Source of the DNA: a virus
Taxonomy: Duplodnaviria > Caudoviricetes
Length of the DNA: 28,588 nt
Reading direction: 5' to 3' (one strand)
Virus record (IMG/VR): IMGVR_UViG_3300017910_000452
Coordinates: 1 to 28,588 of that record
Made by a program: the position numbers and the translations under genes. Positions 1-15,538 of this stretch are shown here, one piece after another; the first letter of the stretch is position 1, and every line of letters begins with the position of its first letter. The notes beneath the pieces are model-generated. The model saw only the letters and a program-made list of their open reading frames with translations, had not been told where the DNA came from and did not search any database.

Positions 1-83
1 ACTTCACGGTCTTCAATCGCATTTAAGCAGTCTTGCATGTCTTTTACCGTGTTTTCAAAACGGCAATAACTCATGTTAGGCAT
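1..83 (-). CDS. Conserved phage hypothetical protein, 5' part only (MPNMSYCRFENTVKDMQDCLNAIEDRE...)
   Basis: ATG at 83-81 after an A/T-rich leader. The frame is open to the window edge. The 'NMSYCRFENT..D..DC' N-terminus resembles a phage hypothetical family I recall. Confidence 0.75.
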   Translation of the reverse strand, partial: MPNMSYCRFENTVKDMQDCLNAIEDRE

Positions 84-101
84 AATAATTAATTTTAAAG
101 T

Positions 102-198
102 TAGAAGGCGTGATAGGAATCGAACCTATATCACTGCGCTAAGTAAACATCTTGCTAAAGCTCAGAATGCAAAGCAACAGCCCAACCATTTCACGCCT
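102..198 (-). ncRNA. tRNA-like element 1 (no D-stem, no canonical anticodon arm)
   Basis: Minus strand reads AGGCGTG-AAATGG...ATAGG-TTCGATT-CCTAT-CACGCCT-TCTA. This gives a perfect 7-bp acceptor stem, a 5-bp T-stem and a canonical T-loop. Confidence 0.75.
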
Positions 199-207
199 AG
201 TTAGACA

Positions 208-468
208 CTAATCTAGTAGTGTCATATACGCTTTAGGATTTGCTCGTCTAAACCAGTCAAGTCCTTTACGTGTAAGATCATAGTGTCCAGTCATTTGACT
301 ACCCATGATTAAGTCGTACATTGCAACTTCATTGGGTGATAGCATAGCTGACTCACCTGATAAAGGGTTAGTCACTGTTTCCCATTGCGTGTATGTGTCG
401 CCATCATACCATTTTGGTAATGGAGTTTGGCCTGTATCATTCTTCTTCCCACTCATATCCGTCGTCAA
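208..468 (-). CDS. Hypothetical protein (start may be ATG at 456)
   Basis: ORF track. It sits in a tightly packed minus-strand gene string. Confidence 0.75.
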   Translation of the reverse strand: MTTDMSGKKNDTGQTPLPKWYDGDTYTQWETVTNPLSGESAMLSPNEVAMYDLIMGSQMTGHYDLTRKGLDWFRRANPKAYMTLLD

Positions 469-889
469 TTAGTTTTTCAATTAGTTCTTGTCTTTTGTCA
501 TTGTAGTACTCTTCGTATACATTATGTACAACTTCTTGAAACTCATAGTTATCATCATTGAGTTCTTGAAAGTAAATAGTCATACCATCTGTCATAGCGT
601 CAGGCATCTTTTCAAGCCAATCGCTTTCATAATAATATATATCTTCATTGATCGATGGTCGTTGATCATCATCTGTTGCTACCCACACTTCATAACCGTC
701 AGAAGTTGTCTCTGTGTAAAACATCATGTCAGGATTTTTAGCCCAACCATCTGTAATTTCAAAGTCAAAATGGTTTTTAATACGCTCAAGCATAATATCT
801 TGATTAGTGTCATCGGCTGCAGTAACATTGTCTTCTGATAGCAATTGACGCAATAGCTCGTCGTCTAGTTTTAATTTATTATCTGTCAT
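437..889 (-). CDS. Highly acidic hypothetical protein
   Basis: 150-aa D/E-rich ORF that overlaps its neighbours by a few codons. Confidence 0.8.
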   Translation of the reverse strand: MTDNKLKLDDELLRQLLSEDNVTAADDTNQDIMLERIKNHFDFEITDGWAKNPDMMFYTETTSDGYEVWVATDDDQRPSINEDIYYYESDWLEKMPDAMTDGMTIYFQELNDDNYEFQEVVHNVYEEYYNDKRQELIEKLIDDGYEWEEE

Positions 890-1229
890 TGTTATTCCAT
901 TTAAAATAGTTTTTCATTATATACTTTAGAATATATTTTAGTCTAGATTCTTCGTTGTATATCATAATACGCTTTTTGCTTTTAGTTTCATAAAGCTTAC
1001 CGTCCCATCCAACTGCCTTATAATCAACGGTATACGTCTTGTTTATTTGGTACATTGAGTGGCAGTTTCTGTCTATACGAACATAACCTCTTTTGTAAGA
1101 ATAAAATCTTACTGGTTTTCTTCGTACTTTAAACGGTGTTTCAAAAGCTCTTGTACCATTAGCCTTCTGCCGCGAAGTCGTAATCTCGTTGATGCCCAAG
1201 TATTTCATCAACATAGCTGTGTTTTCCAT
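879..1229 (-). CDS. Basic hypothetical protein
   Basis: 116-aa ORF with an ATG start, in the minus-strand string. Confidence 0.75.
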   Translation of the reverse strand: MENTAMLMKYLGINEITTSRQKANGTRAFETPFKVRRKPVRFYSYKRGYVRIDRNCHSMYQINKTYTVDYKAVGWDGKLYETKSKKRIMIYNEESRLKYILKYIMKNYFKWNNNDR

Positions 1230-1455
1230 AATCTTTTTCTATTAAAGTTGCTATATAATTCCATGCATCGAAATCTCTTAGCTGAGAATCCAATGTAGCT
1301 TGTAATTGCTCTTTGTCAAATATACTGGCTACTTTGCCTTCGATTTGAAGTCTAGTTTTAGCCATATCGATAGATAACTGATGCATATTTGCAAAAGCTT
1401 TATCGTGCGCTTGTAATTTAGTTGTATCAGTCATTGTCATCAAATAAGTGCTCAC
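1159..1455 (-). CDS. Hypothetical protein (start may be ATG at 1440)
   Basis: ORF track. It overlaps both neighbours. Confidence 0.65.
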   Translation of the reverse strand: MSTYLMTMTDTTKLQAHDKAFANMHQLSIDMAKTRLQIEGKVASIFDKEQLQATLDSQLRDFDAWNYIATLIEKDYGKHSYVDEILGHQRDYDFAAEG

Positions 1456-1672
1456 ACCACATTACATCATAAGCGCTAAGGTTGTGTAAACTTGTATCAG
1501 AAAACGAGTGTAACGTGCGAATGTCACAAATTTTTAGTTCAGTGATAAACTTAGTTTTATCTAATTTAATGAACAAACTGCGTATTACGTGAGAATATTC
1601 ACGGTCATTAGCCTCAAGCCTTGCTTTGATATGTGGTTTAAGTCGTTGTTTAAGTGTTTTAATTTTAGTCAT
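1427..1672 (-). CDS. Hypothetical protein
   Basis: 81-aa ORF whose ATG lies 8 nt downstream of motif copy 1. Confidence 0.75.
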   Translation of the reverse strand: MTKIKTLKQRLKPHIKARLEANDREYSHVIRSLFIKLDKTKFITELKICDIRTLHSFSDTSLHNLSAYDVMWCEHLFDDND

Positions 1673-1680
1673 AATTATAT

Positions 1681-1714
1681 ATATTATCCATTAGATAATG
1701 TATTTTGTTTGTAA
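1681..1714 (-). promoter_or_regulatory. 34-bp repeated promoter-like motif, copy 1
   Basis: Minus strand TTACAAACAAAATACA-N8-TGGATAATAT, directly upstream of the ORF starting at 1672. Confidence 0.75.
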
Positions 1715-1789
1715 TCACCGTAATAAAGCTACGGCAATAAGCGATAAATAAAATAACGCTATTGTTAAAAATAATTCTCTTGTATTCAT
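1715..1789 (-). CDS. 24-aa hydrophobic peptide (MNTRELFLTIALFYLSLIAVALLR)
   Basis: Manual translation. It fills the gap exactly between tRNA-like element 2 and motif copy 1, and has one TM-like stretch. Confidence 0.5.
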   Translation of the reverse strand: MNTRELFLTIALFYLSLIAVALLR

Positions 1790-1860
1790 AGTGGACGTGG
1801 CAGGAATCGAACCTGCGTTGGTGTACTTACAACTCATACACTTCCTGACCTTTCACGCCC
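1789..1860 (-). ncRNA. tRNA-like element 2 (resembles the tmRNA tRNA-like domain; G3.U70 and A73)
   Basis: Minus strand reads GGGCGTG-AAAGGTCAGGAA-GTGTA-(11 nt loop)-TACAC-CAAC-GCAGG-TTCGATT-CCTGC-CACGTCC-ACTA. Confidence 0.8.
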
Positions 1861-1861
1861 T

Positions 1862-2111
1862 GAAGGCAGCAGTTACGGACTGGTAGTTAACTAGTATTGT
1901 CATTTATCCGCTCTTTCTGTTTTGTGCGCATCGAGCCGAACCATTATCGCCTTTAATTGCACTAACGTGACCAGTATGCCGCCGCCTCGCGCTTCACAAT
2001 CGTGCACTACTATTTCAAGCTGTGATTGTCCTTCGCACTATATAGCCACAACGCTGGTCTGCCAGCATACTCAGTGTGGCTTTGTAGTCTGCCGCTAACA
2101 GCAGCACCTTC
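1862..2111 (-). ncRNA. Unidentified structured ncRNA, ~250 nt
   Basis: No sizeable ORF and visibly GC-richer than its flanks. The terminal helix is GAAGG/CCTTC plus GTTA-G-CGG/CCG-TAAC. Internal hairpins are AGCCACA/TGTGGCT and ACAATC/GATTGT. Confidence 0.6.
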
Positions 2112-2155
2112 CAACTACTAGTAGTTAATAGTGTTTATTTAGAGAACTTTGTTAA

Positions 2156-2344
2156 CTACTTACGTCGCCAAGCTCTGTGCACACTCGCTGATACTTCTTG
2201 GCTAACGATTTGAATAGTATTGCCTGTCTTGTGCTCAATGATAGGTACATAACTGTAAGTTTGAGTGGTTGAACACTCGACACAAGTCTTGTAACCTAAG
2301 TCTATTCGCACTGGGTGCACAGAATTTCCGCATCTACAATACAT
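2156..2344 (-). CDS. Small C4 zinc-finger protein (DksA/TraR-like finger)
   Basis: CxCG...(P)xR......CVEC pattern. It lies downstream of motif copy 2. Confidence 0.6.
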   Translation of the reverse strand: MYCRCGNSVHPVRIDLGYKTCVECSTTQTYSYVPIIEHKTGNTIQIVSQEVSASVHRAWRRK

Positions 2345-2365
2345 ATTTGTTTGTTTTTGTTTATT

Positions 2366-2399
2366 ATATTATCCAGTAGTTATTGTATTTTGTTTGTAA
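2366..2399 (-). promoter_or_regulatory. 34-bp motif, copy 2
   Basis: TTACAAACAAAATACA-N8-TGGATAATAT. It overlaps the end of ORF 2380-2586. Confidence 0.75.
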
Positions 2400-2586
2400 A
2401 CCACCTGTTATATAGTATTTCAACAGTTTTAGCTGCTATAGCTTCTTGTGCTCGTAAGTATTCATCACCTTCAAGTTCGTCAAAGCTAGTTCCGTCCATA
2501 GCCCACTCTGTATTAGAGATAATGCTATCATCGATAGAATCAGCGATCCATGTCGCCATATTCTCTAGTTCTTTCATTTTACTCAT
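2380..2586 (-). CDS. Hypothetical protein
   Basis: 68-aa ORF abutting its upstream neighbour. Confidence 0.7.
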   Translation of the reverse strand: MSKMKELENMATWIADSIDDSIISNTEWAMDGTSFDELEGDEYLRAQEAIAAKTVEILYNRWFTNKIQ

Positions 2587-2587
2587 A

Positions 2588-2776
2588 TTAAAAATAGTTT
2601 ATTTTGTTATCAGAGTGAGACATCCACTCAATATTTCCAAGGTTATAACCTTCAGAGATTAAAAATTCTTCAAAATCTTCATTTTGCCAGTTTTCTATAT
2701 TTTCTGCTTCAATTTGACCTAAATTATATTGGTCAACAGAGCCATTTGCAAAGTCAAGTATAGTTATATAGTACAT
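2588..2776 (-). CDS. Acidic hypothetical protein
   Basis: 62-aa ORF with TAATG coupling to the upstream gene. Confidence 0.75.
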   Translation of the reverse strand: MYYITILDFANGSVDQYNLGQIEAENIENWQNEDFEEFLISEGYNLGNIEWMSHSDNKINYF

Positions 2777-3024
2777 TATTTTGCTATTTGTTTTAGTTGA
2801 TTAACTGAGTATTGTTTACTTGTTTCTCTCCACATACGGTTGTGTGTGAACTTTCTTGACTTAGAATAAGTCTTTTTGCCACTTACTTCGTAGCGCATAT
2901 ACTCTTTGTCAGTTAGTCCACTGCACAATCCGTCGTGAGCGTGGCGACGTCTATGCTCCGCCGCTCGCATTTTCTTTTGCTCTTCAACATAGGTGAGCAG
3001 TTCTCGCATGTTTTTAACTACCAT
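2776..3024 (-). CDS. Basic hypothetical protein
   Basis: 82-aa ORF, translationally coupled to its neighbours. Confidence 0.7.
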   Translation of the reverse strand: MVVKNMRELLTYVEEQKKMRAAEHRRRHAHDGLCSGLTDKEYMRYEVSGKKTYSKSRKFTHNRMWRETSKQYSVNQLKQIAK

Positions 3025-3215
3025 GGAAGTTCGGTTTTTTCGATGTAAGTTAAACCTTTGTAGTTAAACCAGCTAGATTTACCTTCTTGCCCGGCAGCGT
3101 TAGTAATAAAACCGAATGATGGAGGTAAGTCGCCGATTGCATAGCCTTTATACTCAACATCGCCAAGTTTAGCTAGATGAGTGTCGTATTTTTTATAGAA
3201 TTTAATTGATTGCAT
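3018..3215 (-). CDS. Hypothetical protein
   Basis: 65-aa ORF downstream of motif copy 3. Confidence 0.75.
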   Translation of the reverse strand: MQSIKFYKKYDTHLAKLGDVEYKGYAIGDLPPSFGFITNAAGQEGKSSWFNYKGLTYIEKTELPW

Positions 3216-3230
3216 AGTTTATTATTTATT

Positions 3231-3264
3231 ATATTATCCAAAGGATATTGTAATTTGTTTGTAA
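3231..3264 (-). promoter_or_regulatory. 34-bp motif, copy 3
   Basis: TTACAAACAAATTACA-N8-TGGATAATAT. Confidence 0.75.
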
Positions 3265-3265
3265 T

Positions 3266-3421
3266 TTAGTACATCTCTCCTACCCATGAAGATAGTTCTG
3301 AGTTAAATCTATCGTAGTATTCACGCTCAATTGCTTCAATTTCAGCTTTGGTAATTTTAGAAATAACCTTACGATTACTTAAGCTTCTAGCTCTTTGGTA
3401 TTTGTATAAGTCTCTTTTCAT
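3266..3421 (-). CDS. Hypothetical protein (51 aa, MKRDLYKYQR...)
   Basis: C-terminal part of track ORF 3266-3538. The ATG at 3421 follows the stop of 3423-3692 by 1 nt and removes a long overlap. Confidence 0.65.
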   Translation of the reverse strand: MKRDLYKYQRARSLSNRKVISKITKAEIEAIEREYYDRFNSELSSWVGEMY

Positions 3422-3422
3422 A

Positions 3423-3692
3423 TTAATCTCCTGTATAAGAGCCAGGTGTTTTGGCTTTTTCATCATAATAAGCTTGCGCTGCTTTGTTAGAAAGCTCTCG
3501 TCTAGCTTCATATTCCGCTTTATGGTCAAGAAAGTCATCGATACGCTCTTTCATTTCTTGTTCGGTTTGTGAAGTTAATCTAGTAACATAGTATGGAAAC
3601 TCACCGAAAGCTTCGCATGAATAGCCACTTGCTGATTTACCAGTGTAAGTAGTCCACTCGTTATATTCGTAAGGTATATTTCTGTGTTGCAT
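3423..3692 (-). CDS. Hypothetical protein
   Basis: 89-aa ORF with ATG start and A-rich leader. Confidence 0.75.
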   Translation of the reverse strand: MQHRNIPYEYNEWTTYTGKSASGYSCEAFGEFPYYVTRLTSQTEQEMKERIDDFLDHKAEYEARRELSNKAAQAYYDEKAKTPGSYTGD

Positions 3693-3703
3693 AGTTAGTT
3701 ATT

Positions 3704-3838
3704 TTAAAAGATTCCAAAATTAGCGTTTAAATCACCTTGTGCAAACTTAAGTATTAAGCCAATAATGCCAAGTGATGCTAGTGTTACATAGCCATAAACG
3801 ACTACTTTTAGAATTGTATAGTGATTAAATTTTCGCAT
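3704..3838 (-). CDS. 44-aa single-TM membrane protein (MRKFNHYTILKVVVYGYVTLASLGIIGLILKFAQGDLNANFGIF)
   Basis: Manual translation. The ATG is 12 nt downstream of motif copy 4. Confidence 0.65.
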   Translation of the reverse strand: MRKFNHYTILKVVVYGYVTLASLGIIGLILKFAQGDLNANFGIF

Positions 3839-3840
3839 AA

Positions 3841-3981
3841 TTATTTTATATTATTATCCATTAGTAATTGTAATTTGTTTGTAAGTTCTTCACGTCTTTG
3901 TTTAGACTGTGGAGTGATATTGAAGTTTGCTTCAAACTCATTTATCAATTGTAGTTCATTAAATATTTTATCTATAGTCAT
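3841..3981 (-). CDS. 46-aa hypothetical protein (MTIDKIFNELQLINEFEANFNITPQSKQRREELTNKLQLLMDNNIK)
   Basis: Manual translation. It follows tRNA-like element 3, and its 3' end encodes motif copy 4. Confidence 0.6.
   Translation of the reverse strand: MTIDKIFNELQLINEFEANFNITPQSKQRREELTNKLQLLMDNNIK
3851..3884 (-). promoter_or_regulatory. 34-bp motif, copy 4
   Basis: TTACAAACAAATTACA-N8-TGGATAATAA. Confidence 0.75.
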
Positions 3982-4003
3982 AATTGTAATTTTAAAAAGT
4001 TAG

Positions 4004-4076
4004 TAGTAGTCACGGTGAGAATCGAACTCACGTTTAGTAGTAGATTCTAGATTATCTCTCTAAACCCATTGTGACT
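4004..4076 (-). ncRNA. tRNA-like element 3 (no D-stem)
   Basis: Minus strand reads AGTCACA-ATGG-GTTTAG...CTAAAC-GTGAG-TTCGATT-CTCAC-CGTGACT-ACTA. The acceptor has 6 bp plus one A.C pair, and the T-stem has 5 bp. Confidence 0.7.
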
Positions 4077-4151
4077 TAGCTAGTTCAACATTATTTATAC
4101 TGGTGATGGTACTAGTCGGAACGCGCCAGTGAGTTCAAATGAAGAAGTTAA

Positions 4152-4388
4152 TTAAATAACTTCAACATTTTGTAGAACTTTAGGAATTGAAGTGGAAGAA
4201 GTATAAGATTTATATTTTTCCCAGCAATTTAATTTAGTTAAATTATCTTTCATTAGTTCAAAAGCTTTATCATGATTGTATTTGAAAGTTTTACCACTTT
4301 TGAAAGTGACTTCAATAATAGTATTTTGACCTATTAATGATTTGCGAATGACGAAGCGTTTTGATTGAATTGAGTTTGAATTTTGCAT
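4152..4388 (-). CDS. Hypothetical protein
   Basis: 78-aa ORF downstream of motif copy 5. Confidence 0.75.
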   Translation of the reverse strand: MQNSNSIQSKRFVIRKSLIGQNTIIEVTFKSGKTFKYNHDKAFELMKDNLTKLNCWEKYKSYTSSTSIPKVLQNVEVI

Positions 4389-4422
4389 AGTTATTATATT
4401 TAAAAGTTATTATTAATTTATA

Positions 4423-4456
4423 TTATTATCCAGTTTAGTTTGTATTTAGTTTGTAA
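4423..4456 (-). promoter_or_regulatory. 34-bp motif, copy 5
   Basis: TTACAAACTAAATACA-N8-TGGATAATAA. Confidence 0.75.
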
Positions 4457-4507
4457 GTGTATATTTGTTTAGTATTTAAAAATTAGTTAGAGTTATAACA
4501 CTGAACT

Positions 4508-4639
4508 TCATTGTCTATTAATTATTTTATTTAGTTCAATATCTACAAGTTCAGATATTTCATCATTAGTTAAATGATTATATTCTTGTATAAAATCTGT
4601 GAATATATCTTCTCGTAGTGTATCAATGTCGTAATTCAT
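4508..4639 (-). CDS. 43-aa acidic hypothetical protein (MNYDIDTLREDIFTDFIQEYNHLTNDEISELVDIELNKIINRQ)
   Basis: Manual translation. It lies downstream of motif copy 6. Confidence 0.6.
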   Translation of the reverse strand: MNYDIDTLREDIFTDFIQEYNHLTNDEISELVDIELNKIINRQ

Positions 4640-4662
4640 ATTAGTATTTTTTAGTTACATTA

Positions 4663-4696
4663 TTATTATCCAAATTGACTTGTATTTTGTCTGTAA
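4663..4696 (-). promoter_or_regulatory. 34-bp motif, copy 6
   Basis: TTACAGACAAAATACA-N8-TGGATAATAA. Confidence 0.75.
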
Positions 4697-4701
4697 AAGT
4701 A

Positions 4702-4854
4702 TTACGATAGTAAGTACTCTTGACAAAGTGCAAATGATTCCTGGTCATCAGGTGTTGGCATGTCAGCCGGTTCACAGATCAGGTGACCGTTATAGTCTAC
4801 AATCTGTAGTCTGTCACCGGTAAGAGAGCAAGTAAAGGTACGTAGTATAGTCAT
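4702..4854 (-). CDS. 50-aa hypothetical protein (MTILRTFTCSLTGDRLQIVDYNGHLICEPADMPTPDDQESFALCQEYLLS)
   Basis: Manual translation. It is the first gene of the leftward arm, downstream of motif copy 7. Confidence 0.6.
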   Translation of the reverse strand: MTILRTFTCSLTGDRLQIVDYNGHLICEPADMPTPDDQESFALCQEYLLS

Positions 4855-4874
4855 GTTGTTAAGTATTTACATCT

Positions 4875-4908
4875 ATATTATCCGGATTAGTTAGTAGTAC
4901 GTCTGTAA
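4875..4908 (-). promoter_or_regulatory. 34-bp motif, copy 7 (degenerate)
   Basis: TTACAGACGTACTACT-N8-CGGATAATAT, with the same spacing as the other copies. Confidence 0.6.
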
Positions 4909-5070
4909 AAAGTCAAACACCGGGGCGTAATATACTGAAAATCAAGGGTATATACGCAAAAATCTGGGAAAACTGGTGGGGCCCGTAAAACTAAAATCGT
5001 TTTTGTAAAACGTTGATAATCAGTACGATAGGGGGTAACACTATACTCCTAAATATCTAACGACTTTTTT

Positions 5071-5117
5071 TGTGACACTAGCCTTATAAGTAGTATTAGT
5101 AACAGGCTTATGTCACA
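5071..5117. repeat. Imperfect inverted repeat in the divergent intergenic region
   Basis: TGTGACActAGCCT-(19 nt)-AGGCTtaTGTCACA, 12 of 14 positions complementary. Confidence 0.7.
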
Positions 5118-5182
5118 CTTAGGTAAAAAAACAGCGAAATCTGTAAGTATATATCTTATAAACGAATTTTAAAAATAAGTAT

Positions 5183-7357
5183 ATGGCTATTATTTATTCA
5201 TACCCGTACGTAAGCACGGTAAATAACTCAGATACACTAGTAATAAGCGTGTCAGATACTACAGCAGACAACGGGTTTTTAACTAAAAGCCTTACTGCAG
5301 ACAATTTAGCATCGTATGTGACAGCTCGCGTTAATCTAAACTTCTTAGGAGACACTGGCACGGGCATTGTAAATCTTGATACACAAAACTTAAGTATTAC
5401 AGGTACTGCAAATGAGATAGAAACAGCAGCAAGCAGTCAAACTCTACAAATCGGACTGCCAGACAGCGTAACAATAACAGATGATTTAACAGTAGGACAA
5501 GGTGTTAGCGGTAGTATCACCGTTGGAGATAGCGGTTCTCAAAGCTCGATAGCAGGTTTTTTAAATTTAGACGAAGTATTTGTTAATGACATGCTAGAAG
5601 TAGATGGTGACACTATACTTAACAACGATCTTGATGTAAGTGGTAACGCTGAAATTGGCGGGTCACTAAACATGACATTAAGTAGAATTAACAATGTTCT
5701 TAATCCTACTCAACCTCAAGATGCTGCAACAAAACAATATGTTGATACAGCTGTAACTGGTTTACTAGAATTTAAAGGTACATTTAGAGCTGACAGTGGT
5801 TTAATACTTTCTGGTACAAACGCCGGCGCTTACATATACAATTGCCCAGGTGGTGCAGGTACAAGAGTTGCTATTGCTATAGGTGATTATTACATCGTAG
5901 CAAACACTGGCGGCCAATTTTATTGTTCAGGTGATTTGTTACAAGTAGGAGATTCTATAGTAGCTTCTCAAGATGCAGCTGCTGATAGTTCAACAGTAAA
6001 CGACTGGGGAATATTAGAGGGTAATAATGTAGAAGGTACAGGTCTTGCTAACACAATACCGCTTTGGACAGACAGCCAAGTTCTTGGTGATAGTAATATT
6101 ACTCAAAATCCTGGTGGATCAATTACAATATCAGAAAATCTATTAGTTGATCAAAAAGAAATTGAAGCTGGCACAATGATTATTAACGGTGTTGCTGAAA
6201 TAACTGGTGAACTTGATAAAGCAAATTCCAAAATAATAGGTTTAGCAGATCCTACTGCAGCTCAAGATGCAGCTACAAAAGCTTACGTTGATGCTTCTGG
6301 TGTAAATGGAACCGGCACAACTAACACTTTGCCAGTATGGTCAGATGGGCCGGCGGGCGCTTTAAGTGATTCAGCTGTAACTCAAATAGTAGATGGCGGC
6401 GGTAATGTTACTGGAGTTAGAATATTTAATCTTCCTGGAAATAATTACTTTTTTGGAGGAAATGAATTTTCTTCTAGTGATTTTAATTTTAAATCAAACG
6501 GGCTTAGTGGTGGTTTTTATAGATCAGGTAATTTTAGATTTGAAAACAACTTAGCTGTCGGTAGAACAAACGATCCATTAATTGCAAGATTAGATGTAGG
6601 AACTTCAGCAGATTCTATACCAGCCGCTTTTTTTAGAAACGGTGTTGTAGTATCAAATAATCCAGCAGGTGTTCAAGTTGATAACACATCGATGGTAATT
6701 GGTGCTGGTAATAACGATAACGTTACAGGTTCTGATCACTGTTTGATTGTAGGTAGTGGTAACCAAATTACTAGTAACTCAGATCAATCAGTTGCTTTTG
6801 GACAAGGAAACACTATAACAAGTTCAATTGATTCTTTAGCTGTAGGTAATAGTAATACCATAAGCTCCGCGCAAAGAACATATGCGTTAGGTTTTAGTAA
6901 CGATATTTCGTCAGCGTCCAGTTTTGTAGCTGGTGGCGATAACACAGTAGGTAGCGGAAACACAAAAATAGTACTTGGTTATAACAACTCGTCAACTGGT
7001 AACGATACTTTTGTTATTGGTAACGAACTAACTGGCGCTGATGGAACTATGGTGTTAGGATATAGAAATCGCCCAGCAGATTATCCAACTCCTGATAAAA
7101 ATCAAGGTTTAGGTGAAACTAAACTTGTAATAGCAGTTGGATCTGGCACCAACGCTCCAGCAAAAAATAACGCAATTATAATAACTGAAGGTGGTGTTAA
7201 TGGTGGTAATAGCGGAACTGTGCCACAAGTACCAAGAGTTATATTACCAACAGTAGTAGATTTTAATTTTGCAGATGATACAGCTGCTGCTGCTGGTGGT
7301 ATACCAGTTGGTGGTTTATACCATAACGCTGGAGCATTAAGAATAAGACTTACGTAA
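5183..7357 (+). CDS. Tail fibre/spike-like virion protein
   Basis: 724 aa, G/T/S/N-rich. It has two 'PT..QDAATK.YVD' and two 'GTG..NT.P.W' motifs, and C-terminal 'G..N' repeats like trimeric adhesin beta-roll heads. Confidence 0.7.
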   Translation: MAIIYSYPYVSTVNNSDTLVISVSDTTADNGFLTKSLTADNLASYVTARVNLNFLGDTGTGIVNLDTQNLSITGTANEIETAASSQTLQIGLPDSVTITDDLTVGQGVSGSITVGDSGSQSSIAGFLNLDEVFVNDMLEVDGDTILNNDLDVSGNAEIGGSLNMTLSRINNVLNPTQPQDAATKQYVDTAVTGLLEFKGTFRADSGLILSGTNAGAYIYNCPGGAGTRVAIAIGDYYIVANTGGQFYCSGDLLQVGDSIVASQDAAADSSTVNDWGILEGNNVEGTGLANTIPLWTDSQVLGDSNITQNPGGSITISENLLVDQKEIEAGTMIINGVAEITGELDKANSKIIGLADPTAAQDAATKAYVDASGVNGTGTTNTLPVWSDGPAGALSDSAVTQIVDGGGNVTGVRIFNLPGNNYFFGGNEFSSSDFNFKSNGLSGGFYRSGNFRFENNLAVGRTNDPLIARLDVGTSADSIPAAFFRNGVVVSNNPAGVQVDNTSMVIGAGNNDNVTGSDHCLIVGSGNQITSNSDQSVAFGQGNTITSSIDSLAVGNSNTISSAQRTYALGFSNDISSASSFVAGGDNTVGSGNTKIVLGYNNSSTGNDTFVIGNELTGADGTMVLGYRNRPADYPTPDKNQGLGETKLVIAVGSGTNAPAKNNAIIITEGGVNGGNSGTVPQVPRVILPTVVDFNFADDTAAAAGGIPVGGLYHNAGALRIRLT

Positions 7358-7756: not shown

Positions 7757-9313
7757 ATGTCAGACAAAATTGTCAAAAACCTTAACTTTGGGGAAGACGC
7801 AAAGAATAAGGTGTTTAAAGGTATAGAAAAACTCACAAAAGCTGTTAGCTCCACACTTGGAGCTAGCGGCCAATGTGTTATTTTAGAAGACGATCAGGGT
7901 AAACCTGTCATTACAAAAGACGGTGTAACTGTTGCAAACAGTATTATACTGCTAGACCCGGTAGAAAATATGGGTGCTACGCTTTTAAAAGAAGCTGCTA
8001 GAAAAACTGTGCAAGAAGCTGGCGATGGAACGACAACAGCTACAGTACTAGCGCACTCAATTTTAACAGAGGCCTATAAAAATTTAGATAAAGATAATAC
8101 CCGTAACATTAAAGAAGGTATAAATAAAGCCGTTAATAATGTTATTAAATACCTAGAGAAAAAAGCAATACCAGTTGAAGGTACTATGCTTGATGATGTT
8201 GCTACAATTAGTTGTAACAATGATAAAGAACTAGGTAAAATAATAGGGGAAGCGTTTAAAGCTGCTGGTGAAAACGGTGTTGTTGTAATGGAGCCAACAA
8301 CCGAAGATACTACAGAGCTTGAGTTAGTTGACGGCGTTCAATACGAGAAAGGTTTAACTAACTCACATTTTGTAACAAGCAAAGATAAGCGAGTAGCTGA
8401 GCTTGATAATCCATTAGTATTACTACTTGAGTCACCTGTAGAGTCTGTACGTAAGATACAGTCGGTGCTAGAGTATGTAATTAAAAATAAAAAACCTTTA
8501 CTTATTATTGGTGATTTAGAAACTGAAGTGTTAGCAACGCTAGCAATGAATAGAGTTAAAGGTAATATAAAAGTTAATGTAGTAAACGCGCCTACATACG
8601 GTATAAATAAGAAAGATATGCTTTCTGATTTAGCCACACTTACTGGCGCTACTGTTGTTAACGAAGATCTTGGTGATGACTTAGATGTTATCAACCCTGA
8701 TTTTTTAGGTACGTGCTATAAAAGTATTACCAATGACACAGAAACTATATTACAAGTAGATACATCTACTGATGAAATAAAAGAATTAATTAGTTCAGTA
8801 AAAGATTTAATAGCTAAAGCTAAAGCACCGGGTGAAGTTATACGTCTTGAAAAACGTTTAGCTAGACTTTCAGGTAAAGTGTCGGTTGTAAAAGTTGGAG
8901 CAAATTCAGAGATTGAATTAAAAGAAAAATCGGATAGGGTCGAAGATGCTATCTGTGCTACTAAAGCCGCGGTAAAAGAAGGTATAGTATCAGGAGGTGG
9001 TATAGCCTTGCTCGATGCATCTAATAAAACCAAAGCCAAGAGCGTTGGTGAAAAGATTCTTCTTGAAGCTATTAAAGCACCGTTTAAAACTATACTAAAT
9101 AATGCTGGACTGGAAGAGGTTGGTACGCCCGAAGAAGGTATGGGTGTTAATGTAATTACAGGTGATATTGTAAATATGATTGATAAAGGTATTATTGATC
9201 CTTTGCTTGTAACTAAAAGCGCACTCAAACACGCGGCTTCAGTGGCTACCACTATATTGTCTACAGATTGTGTAATCAATAATTTAAGAGTTGGTGATGA
9301 AAGCAATAGGTAG
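7757..9313 (+). CDS. groEL: Phage-encoded group I chaperonin GroEL
   Basis: Motifs [52 protein letters not shown] and GIIDP..V.KSAL. Confidence 0.97.
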
Positions 9314-9560
9314 AAATATAATTATAAAAAAGAAAAAAGAAGATACCGTTAAAAAAACAGACGGTGGTCTTATGTTAACTGGCAAACAGCGAGTTGATGT
9401 ACGTTACAAAGAAGCAACTGTACTTCATTGTGGTGATGATGTTAAAGGTATAGAAGAAGGTAAAACTATATTCTACGATAAAAACGCAAGTCATCGTCTT
9501 GAAGTTGGTAAAGAAGTTTTCCATGTTATACGTGATATTGATGTAGTTGTTATATTATGA
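9297..9560 (+). CDS. groES: Co-chaperonin GroES
   Basis: [10 protein letters not shown]...KKTDGGLML (mobile loop)...V...G..V..I.EG..I.Y...VIRDIDVVVIL. It overlaps the groEL stop; ATG at 9297. Confidence 0.85.
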   Translation: MKAIGRNIIIKKKKEDTVKKTDGGLMLTGKQRVDVRYKEATVLHCGDDVKGIEEGKTIFYDKNASHRLEVGKEVFHVIRDIDVVVIL

Positions 9561-11098: not shown

Positions 11099-11363
11099 AG
11101 TAGACAAAAAAACTCTTAAGTGCAATAAGCCCAGAAGAACTCCTAGTCACCCTAAAAAGTCTCATATAGTAAAAGCTTGTCAGGGTGGTAAAGAAAAAAT
11201 TATACGCTTTGGCGAACAAGGAGCTAAAACAGCTGGTAAACCTAAAGCTGGCGAGTCAGACAAAATGAAAAAGAAACGTGCTAGCTTTAAAGCGCGTCAT
11301 GCAAAAAATATTAAAAAAGGTAAAATGTCTGCCGCTTACTGGGCTGACAAAGTAAAATGGTAA
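11091..11363 (+). CDS. Small basic conserved phage protein
   Basis: Pattern 'K.IRFG..G...R.SF.ARH....K.SAAYW..K..W', which I recall from marine phages. GTG start. Confidence 0.75.
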   Translation: MSKVDKKTLKCNKPRRTPSHPKKSHIVKACQGGKEKIIRFGEQGAKTAGKPKAGESDKMKKKRASFKARHAKNIKKGKMSAAYWADKVKW

Positions 11364-14706: not shown

Positions 14707-14933
14707 TGAGTACTGTTATAAGAAAAATCAGTATTGGTTCTGATTATAAGAATGATGCTATGCACTACGCGTTAGGTCAGCAAGTCTACGGTGGTCATGA
14801 GATATCACACATTCTGTTTGAAGACGAAGACGCTTCTTATAACATATTCATAAAGAAAAACAATGAGGTATTGCCATGGAAGAAATTTAATTCTAACATG
14901 GCTATATCCGTTGAATATGATTTAGAATATTAA
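14706..14933 (+). CDS. Hypothetical protein
   Basis: 75 aa, TAATG coupling on both sides. Confidence 0.8.
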   Translation: MSTVIRKISIGSDYKNDAMHYALGQQVYGGHEISHILFEDEDASYNIFIKKNNEVLPWKKFNSNMAISVEYDLEY

Positions 14934-15538
14934 TGAAAAGCGTTTTTGATTTTATAGTTATACCAGACGGAAAAAGGTATAACAATGAAGTTGATATAAA
15001 CGGCGATAAACTTATAGTTAATTCTAGCATAGAAAACTTTAAGCTTATAAACAGAACAGCAATGGTACTTACTGTGCCAACTGCTTTTGAGACGCCAATA
15101 CAAGAAGGTGATAAAGTAATTATACACCACAATGTATTTAGAAGATATTATAACCATCAAGGTAAAGAAGTTGATAGTAGTAAAACATTTGACGATAATA
15201 GGTACTTATGTCAATACGATCAAATATATCTTTACAAACGTATGGTAAAATGGTTACCAGTTCGTGATCATTGTTTTATTATACCGATAAAAAATAATGA
15301 CGCTTGGTCCCAAGAACCAGAGCAAAAGAATAAAGGTATAGTAAAAATAGGTAATAAAACCTTAGAGTCACTTGGTATATACGAGGGTGATTTAGTTGGT
15401 TTTAAATCAAATAGAGAGTTTGAGTTTATTATAGATAAACAAAGACTATATTGTATGCAATCAAATGATATTTTAGTTAAGTATGAGTTCAAAGGAGACG
15501 AGGAAGAATATAATCCAAGCTGGGCGAAAAGCAGTTGA
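14933..15538 (+). CDS. Tandem GroES-like protein
   Basis: Both halves carry a GroES-like pattern: 'A.V..VP....I.EGDKV', and 'PVRDHCFI.P...KGIV..G....GI.EGD.V.F....E.EF.ID...LY.M...DIL'. Confidence 0.65.
   Translation: MKSVFDFIVIPDGKRYNNEVDINGDKLIVNSSIENFKLINRTAMVLTVPTAFETPIQEGDKVIIHHNVFRRYYNHQGKEVDSSKTFDDNRYLCQYDQIYLYKRMVKWLPVRDHCFIIPIKNNDAWSQEPEQKNKGIVKIGNKTLESLGIYEGDLVGFKSNREFEFIIDKQRLYCMQSNDILVKYEFKGDEEEYNPSWAKSS

Follow-up and report, generated by a model that had tools for sequence, protein, structure and literature searches.

The window analyzed here is the whole 28,588-nucleotide (nt) stretch of IMG/VR record IMGVR_UViG_3300017910_000452, from a virus of the Caudoviricetes. PHROG and Pfam searches of this 28.6-kb window found genes for GroEL, two GroES proteins, terminase, portal, and virion proteins. 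Positions 1 to 4900 carry small minus-strand open reading frames (ORFs), none with a PHROG or Pfam match, and among these lie three minus-strand RNA elements shaped like the top half of a tRNA: element 1 (positions 102 to 198), element 2 (1789 to 1860), and element 3 (4004 to 4076). The T-loop is identical in all three. A first-pass annotation, made without database searches, had described these coordinates, the strand, T-stems, T-loop, GG linkers, and NCTA ends, all of which were found as described, and had treated the elements as one kind of tRNA mimic. All three lack an anticodon and fold on the plan of the tRNA-like domain (TLD) of transfer-messenger RNA (tmRNA). They are not of one kind, however, because they are under different constraints: element 2 is held at the level of sequence, whereas elements 1 and 3 are held in shape only.

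A structural scanner that looks for a T arm, an acceptor stem, and the GG found exactly three matches in the window versus a mean of 0.002 in 1,000 dinucleotide shuffles, two of which had one match and none two. No full tRNA had been expected, and ARAGORN predicted no genes in the window. The best Rfam tRNA score (RF00005), for element 1, was 26.3 bits, below the cut-off of 29. Element 2 matched the ends of tmRNA (RF00023) with 30.9 bits and an E value of 5e-9, below the cut-off of 47, and element 3 had no Rfam match. None of the elements has the D stem, anticodon arm, and 7-nt loop of a full tRNA or is recognized as one by ARAGORN or by a score above 29 bits. When folded freely, elements 2 and 3 adopt the acceptor/T form as their minimum-energy structure. 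The T arm of element 1 is drawn into a long helix instead, so its fold rests on comparison. Folding z-scores were modest (-1.8 to -2.4). All three elements score with the TLD model R1 (47.3 bits for element 1 and 34.4 bits for element 3).

The positions that such elements occupy in related genomes, here called slots, were defined without reference to RNA. Twenty-eight loci were found by the 78-amino-acid protein encoded at 4152 to 4388 (minus strand), genes and T arms were then mapped, and slot identities were assigned with ARAGORN. Slot A, which holds element 2, follows a Cys-rich 62-amino-acid ORF (2156 to 2344, minus strand) whose Cys pairs look zinc-finger-like by eye. Slot B, which holds element 3, follows the 78-amino-acid gene, and slot C, which holds element 1, follows a 77-amino-acid ORF (208 to 441, minus strand) or, in L003, the preceding gene. 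No family match was found for the 62- and 77-amino-acid products and no PHROG or Pfam match for the 78-amino-acid protein.

Element 2 is a 72-nt RNA with its T-loop at 1805 to 1811 and a CTA tail. Its 7-bp acceptor stem carries G1-C72, G2-C71, and G3·U70, followed by discriminator A73, which together make up the alanine identity set. A stemless GG loop, a short connector, and a 6-bp hairpin stand in place of tmRNA helix 2 and the message. The Rfam match joins both tmRNA ends across 34 nt, where the model has 328 positions, and the tmRNA model won the clan overlap over tRNA. Judged by Rfam and by the empty ARAGORN result, element 2 has neither a tag reading frame nor pseudoknots between the TLD halves, as a full tmRNA would. 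The alanine set of a TLD-only tmRNA is present in element 2 and in 14/14 slot-A TLDs, and is absent from elements 1 and 3. This alanine identity and the tmRNA-TLD geometry were overlooked in the first-pass annotation.

Slot A is nearly uniform. It holds an alanine TLD in 14 of 16 informative loci, a tRNA-Met in one, and nothing in one. The 18 nt that make up the T-stem, 3' acceptor strand, and discriminator of slot A occur as a single distinct sequence in 13 genomes found by protein, although the protein next to slot A is only 39 to 76% identical in the 8 of those genomes that have it. The equivalent 18 nt of slot B in the same 13 genomes occur as 10 distinct sequences with a mean identity of 0.60. 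In 40 chosen alanine-type sequences (alignment A1), all 12 pairs form and 7 show compensatory change, but this covariation is biased, since some of the stem letters were prescribed by the search patterns; the protein-anchored set and a stem-free scan were relied on instead. The hairpin was not fixed by the patterns; its basal helix has at least 5 pairs in 29/40 sequences, with a mean of 5.35 versus 3.27 when shuffled. The connector has A at -2 in 38/40 and C at -1 in 33/40.

Pattern scans returned 22 and 66 viral stretches, the second set including apparent full-tmRNA 3' ends, which were dropped. Unannotated copies of the alanine type lie in the tRNA clusters of the cultured Microbacterium phages Gack, Eden, Dismas, Armstrong, and Quenya (L053:1439-1530 and L209 to L212). 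G3·U70 and A73 are present in each of the five copies read, while the T-stems come in four versions; these copies adjoin tRNA genes rather than an ORF start. At least 80% of the Gack copy is covered by 25 records; the match in BAjuniper overlaps an annotated tRNA-Pro. No alanine TLD was found in positions 1 to 34,000 of Elemovirus elemoA, where the only score was 16.2 bits at an annotated tRNA-Ala, or in the 42 kb examined of the closest terminase relative. A pattern scan of GTDB gave only two matches, L051 and L052, on short contigs of metagenome-assembled genomes (MAGs) with phage gene context. These contigs, one of which is labelled Aliivibrio, are probably mis-binned phage DNA.

Slot B behaves differently. 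Element 3 is 73 nt long, with its T-loop at 4020 to 4026, and its 6-bp acceptor stem ends in an A7·C66 mismatch; it lies 22 nt ahead of the ATG at 3981. Its close orthologues are 44-nt forms that lack the hairpin. A top-half RNA is present in 20 of the 24 informative loci, three of them with alanine marks, and none of the 24 has an intact tRNA. Covariation was detected at 8 of 12 pairs among 13 slot-B-type sequences (0 of 500 shuffles). The stem-free scan, in which every stem letter was left free, returned 52 contigs with 29 distinct 44-nt forms. In these, acceptor pairs 1 to 6 are formed in 173/174 cases and T-stem pairs in 115/116 (288/290 together), pair 7·66 forms in 4/29, and G3·U70 is present in 1/29. 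In the protein-anchored orthologues the linker of the 44-nt form is free to vary except for the GG. In slot B of L013 and L018 (T-loops near 8264) a 6-bp acceptor is stacked on a 6-bp T-stem, so that the 12-pair length is kept.

Element 1, at 97 nt, carries a long imperfect hairpin and has its T-loop at 118 to 124. Its 7-bp acceptor stem has A1-U72 and G3-C70, with U73 as the discriminator, so that alanine identity is lost. It begins 9 nt past the stop of ORF 208-441 and lies 18 nt ahead of the ATG at 83. Among 13 slot-C loci there are four mini-forms of 43 nt, two alanine TLDs, one element-1 type, three tRNA-Gln, and three tRNA-Met. For slots B and C, the top-half fold is kept irrespective of sequence, at gene boundaries, and is interchangeable with tRNA genes. 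Further classes of anticodon-less top-half RNA with other acceptor stems occur within this phage group at L007:10636-10744, L018:10454-10565, L034:1667-1803, L011:4477-4535, and L015:8296-8402; one of these has alanine marks and a longer hairpin.

The first-pass annotation had named intact tRNAs among the homologues as grounds for regarding the elements as decayed pseudogenes. Intact tRNAs do occupy slot C in 6/13 loci and slot A in one, and element 1 has a tRNA score of 26.3 bits, as might be expected of decayed tRNA pseudogenes or leftover integration-site fragments. However, the 5' strand and GG loop of element 1 recur in element 2 but not in the slot-C tRNAs, which therefore replace element 1 and are not its intact ancestor. 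Element 1 is a paralogue of element 2 that lost alanine identity. Compensatory change at 8/12 slot-B pairs and the 288/290 free pairs formed also argue against decay, as well as upholding the earlier proposal of non-decoding mimics kept by covariation. Both acceptor strands are retained, which is unlike an attachment-site (att) fragment, and the 3' end is unlike that of the tmRNA in the one Bacteroidetes genome examined. The covariation counts largely refute this explanation, which we consider very improbable.

The CTA (CUA) tail was also followed across the relatives. It is kept in 17/20 alanine copies in which the pattern left the tail free, and DS6A, a mycobacteriophage with a TLD-only tmRNA, has it too. 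The NCTA end noted in the first pass is thus present, but it is not peculiar to the mimics, since all seven intact tRNA genes that occupy slots in relatives end in CTA. CTA as a host habit was rejected on one Bacteroidetes MAG that may not be the host: among tRNA ends read by pattern from loci of the best 30 of 83 matches, CTA and CCA each account for 1/39. Bacterial RNase P forms the pairs G255-C74 and G254-C75 with its substrate (PMC4919922). U75 could pair as G·U with the GGU loop of RNase P, in which case selection would be on the precursor.

The reading we prefer, with a probability of roughly 45%, is a split one: element 2 may act in trans as a tmRNA decoy, and elements 1 and 3 may be processing marks recognized by shape only. 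RNase P would cut at +1, guided by the elbow formed by GG and T-loop, the 12-position acceptor plus T helix, and the C-U-A tail; the 3' trailer would be trimmed and CCA added. Element 2 would then be charged with alanine, and the alanyl mini-TLD would occupy SmpB and EF-Tu, or enter stalled ribosomes without a tag frame, so that fewer phage proteins would be tagged for proteolysis. At slots B and C the cuts would leave the next gene with a short AT-rich leader. A charged trans-acting RNA is suggested for element 2 because the alanine marks are constrained in sequence and a known analogue inhibits tmRNA. Processing marks are suggested for elements 1 and 3 because the constraint is on shape only and real tRNAs take their place. 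The split reading also leans on likeness to the DS6A TLD and to plant t-elements. The four RNA runs that were examined are contigs of related strains and are uninformative on ends, strand, and level; none of 24 RNA runs contained half of the sampled words.

Three points of the first-pass annotation can be refined. The leader common to elements 1 and 3 is present, but it also follows a tRNA-Met (L015) and an alanine TLD (L005) and therefore belongs to the downstream gene. The suggestion of a processing signal would suit elements 1 and 3, whose slots take tRNA top halves of any kind. The suggestion of a decoy suits element 2, for which the tmRNA-SmpB/AlaRS (alanyl-tRNA synthetase) pathway is the likely target. 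Decoying of tRNA-targeting anticodon nucleases is disfavored, because the elements lack the anticodon loop that such nucleases cleave.

One possibility is that all three elements are cis-acting processing marks only, phage counterparts of t-elements, and that element 2 owes its alanine marks to inheritance and makes no use of them. All three do lie between genes on one co-oriented strand, on which a single weak terminator-like site occurs in positions 1 to 5200. Slots can also be swapped, as in L013, which has tRNA-Met in slot A and an alanine TLD in slot C (L013:10073-10145 and 11134-11211), and the genomic CTA tail points to selection on the precursor. An ATG lies within 30 nt of 33/44 alanine-type copies. 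However, RNase P and 3' trimming are not known to need G3·U70, and yet this pair never varies at slot A, in contrast to the drifting stems of slot B, and it is kept in the Microbacterium phage tRNA clusters despite T-stem change. We regard this explanation as doubtful, though it deserves serious consideration.

Another possibility, which we judge somewhat unlikely, is that all three elements are released and act in trans as sponges, soaking up SmpB or other host factors that bind the elbow, with the message cuts a by-product. A TLD-like molecule similar to that of DS6A, chargeable or not, is reported to inhibit tmRNA strongly, perhaps by titrating SmpB (Hudson 2014, PMC4131195). All three elements score with the TLD model, and several copies per genome would raise dosage; each of five near-complete relatives has two to three matches, some of them real tRNAs. 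On the other hand, SmpB is described as binding near helix 2 of tmRNA (PMC1168896), and the 44-nt form has no equivalent of that helix. The free variation of the linker in the 44-nt form outside the GG and the intact tRNAs in slot C also speak against sponges.

A third alternative is that element 2 works with host SmpB in tag-free rescue, in which the stalled chain is accepted on alanine and the ribosome continues or drops off untagged. Strict alanine identity at slot A would fit, as would the lack of a phage-encoded SmpB in the near-complete relatives (0/5) and the fact that mitochondria and some plastids retain message-less tmRNAs together with SmpB (PMC11915505). Element 2, however, supplies no stop codon or release route, and inhibition is what the sole cited experiment on the phage form reports, which makes rescue an unlikely role.

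Several observations weigh against the split reading. Since the inhibition of tmRNA is reportedly independent of alanine charging (PMC4131195), a decoy role is conceivable for elements 1 and 3 as well. The proximity of an ATG to most alanine-type copies means that element 2 may have a cis role. Slot sharing could stem from T-arm recombination rather than common function, and the slot counts overstate independence because L015/L017, L018/L027, and L023/L024 are near-duplicate loci. Slot B is empty in 4/24 loci, and among the 19 loci with a long stretch of downstream sequence, four (L018 and L023 to L025) yielded no alanine TLD. The loop after the GG is mostly a 4-nt UUAG, compared with a 6-nt run ending in GA in the tmRNA of one Bacteroidetes genome and 7 nt in DS6A; only L048, L086, and DS6A have the longer, tmRNA-like run. 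The tmRNA sequence after the GG is the SmpB contact region. The short loop may therefore bind SmpB weakly.

The hairpins of the TLDs appear to be exchangeable cargo. Fifteen of 43 distinct hairpin interiors match DNA beyond the masked elements over at least 14 exact bases, whereas 4.2 were expected from shuffles; roughly two of these matches appear fortuitous, and two more overlap in part with an unmasked TLD. Most matches fall in other genomes, on free-standing stem-loops of an array that lies upstream of slot A. The window has such an array (1861 to 2155, minus strand), a non-coding series of stem-loop cassettes that adjoins element 2 on its upstream side and has no Rfam match; cassettes are shuffled among relatives, some sit inside the TLD hairpin in other genomes, and a module of the window's own array was found within the TLD hairpin of L004. 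These findings permit a reading in which the TLD is mainly a stabilizing scaffold that displays swappable hairpins as decoys for host proteins. However, none of the window's own three hairpins had an outside match of at least 14 bases, the 43- to 44-nt forms carry no cargo, and local recombination alone may explain the movement of hairpins. A scaffold as the main function thus seems improbable. It is conceivable, but rather unlikely, that a widespread marine phage group possesses a modular tRNA-top-half toolkit in which an alanine-chargeable mini-tmRNA both disarms tagging and serves as a scaffold for hairpin cargo, alongside 43- to 44-base early-message marks interchangeable with tRNA genes.

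Other RNA motifs adjoin the elements. A multi-helix motif at 1863 to 1990 (minus strand), which has no Rfam match, stops short of element 2 by a few bases. Many relatives keep its two outer halves, with an insert between them that varies, and in L024 the motif also stands ahead of a tRNA-Met gene. Upstream of element 3 is a conserved hairpin with an A-rich tail (4085 to 4135, minus strand), again with no Rfam match, which, read by eye, is possibly an H-type loop-tail pseudoknot. This hairpin, which follows the 78-amino-acid gene, has a covarying stem and has equivalents in L002, L005, and L016, the last without an Rfam match at E values up to 10; hairpins of this type also occur without element 3 downstream in L042 and L118. 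A 24-amino-acid hydrophobic ORF (1715 to 1789, minus strand) begins on the last base of the element 2 tail, and an ATG in the same overlap with the alanine-TLD tail is present in several relatives.

The early region is further marked by seven copies of a promoter-like 33-bp repeat on the minus strand (1682 to 1714, 2367 to 2399, 3232 to 3264, 3852 to 3884, 4424 to 4456, 4664 to 4696, and 4876 to 4908). The repeat (family D1/D2) has two boxes at a fixed spacing and matched only in the early region, seven times in the window versus none in 100 shuffles. Through these copies, which are putative promoters, the three elements all fall on one co-oriented early strand. The repeat directly follows the alanine type in 5 of 44 distinct copies. 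BLAST comparison of the early region with cultured phages gave short, weak matches only. On the plus strand, positions 7757 to 9560 and 14933 to 15538 encode GroEL, GroES, and another GroES-like protein of greater length. The terminase is about 45% identical to that of Flavobacterium elemo phages, and Flavobacteriaceae are the hosts of nearly all 87 cultured matches. Thus, the sequence is probably from an uncultured phage with a host in the Flavobacteria.

Phage T4 encodes the small stable RNAs C and D, which are anticodon-less tRNA-like RNAs in the phage tRNA region. Since copies of the message-less design occur in dozens of marine phage contigs and in cultured Microbacterium phages, which have a harmless host for laboratory work, the purpose of such phage RNAs becomes testable, as does the possibility that interference with trans-translation is routine among phages. 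Within a single genome, an alanine slot that does not vary and another slot that covaries freely separate a function read from sequence from one read from shape. At 44 bases, the minimal form is among natural tRNA mimics a very small one. The sharing of slots with tRNA-Met and tRNA-Gln genes suggests that some phage tRNA genes are partly kept as processing marks.

The closest known system is the tmRNA of DS6A that lacks a coding sequence, attributed to Mao et al. 2009 (cited in PMC4131195 and PMC11915505). In the parts of these two tmRNA surveys available to us, DS6A is the only phage named as having a message-less tmRNA; a DS6A-like design is now found in dozens of marine phage contigs and in cultured Microbacterium phages. 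The DS6A TLD, which was located in the DS6A record for this comparison, is 83 nt long versus 72 nt for element 2 and scores 43.2 versus 30.9 bits with Rfam tmRNA, both below threshold. The two share G1-C72, G2-C71, G3·U70, A73, a stemless GG loop, a single hairpin, the T-loop, and the ACUA end. Unlike DS6A, the phage of the window has a shorter post-GG loop, three paralogues of which two lack alanine marks, a hypervariable hairpin, and placement between early genes, with 43- to 44-nt forms and interchange with real tRNAs among its relatives. Nawrocki 2025 (PMC11915505) repeats the account of inhibition and adds message-less plastid forms of about 65 bp. Like element 2, the organellar message-less tmRNAs are a TLD without a tag frame, but they replace tmRNA in their compartment, whereas the probable host of this phage has a full tmRNA. 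The 3' end of the elements differs from that of the tmRNA in the Bacteroidetes genome examined.

For elements 1 and 3 the nearest parallel is the t-elements of plant mitochondria, non-canonical tRNA-like folds beside mRNA ends where real tRNAs do the same job (Forner et al. 2007, PMC1920247). Both have a conserved T arm in a non-canonical tRNA-like fold at gene or mRNA boundaries. Unlike t-elements, elements 1 and 3, which are putative cleavage marks, belong to a bacterial virus, are under compensatory selection across many genomes, and would meet a different RNase P. Bacterial RNase P is described as tolerating extensive truncation of its substrates, reading the D/T elbow and the 3' RCCA (PMC4919922). 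YrlA Y RNAs also have a tRNA-like module with a T arm and occur in phages, one being cut by RNase P and CCA-tailed (PMC4201824). The window elements fall outside that class, which is marked by a D stem, an acceptor stem closed by a loop, and a Ro60 gene in the vicinity; Rfam gave no YrlA match in the window, and no TROVE (Ro60) gene was found in 5/5 near-complete relatives. In the literature as far as it was available to us, the family is undescribed beyond DS6A, with no 44-nt form and no slot swapping, although the candidate RNAs of PMC10690425 could include such motifs. The kind is already known from DS6A and t-elements. What is new is that slots are exchanged with real tRNAs, that a form of 44 bases exists, and that the CUA tail is conserved, together with the exchangeable hairpin cargo and the unannotated copies in cultured Microbacterium phages.

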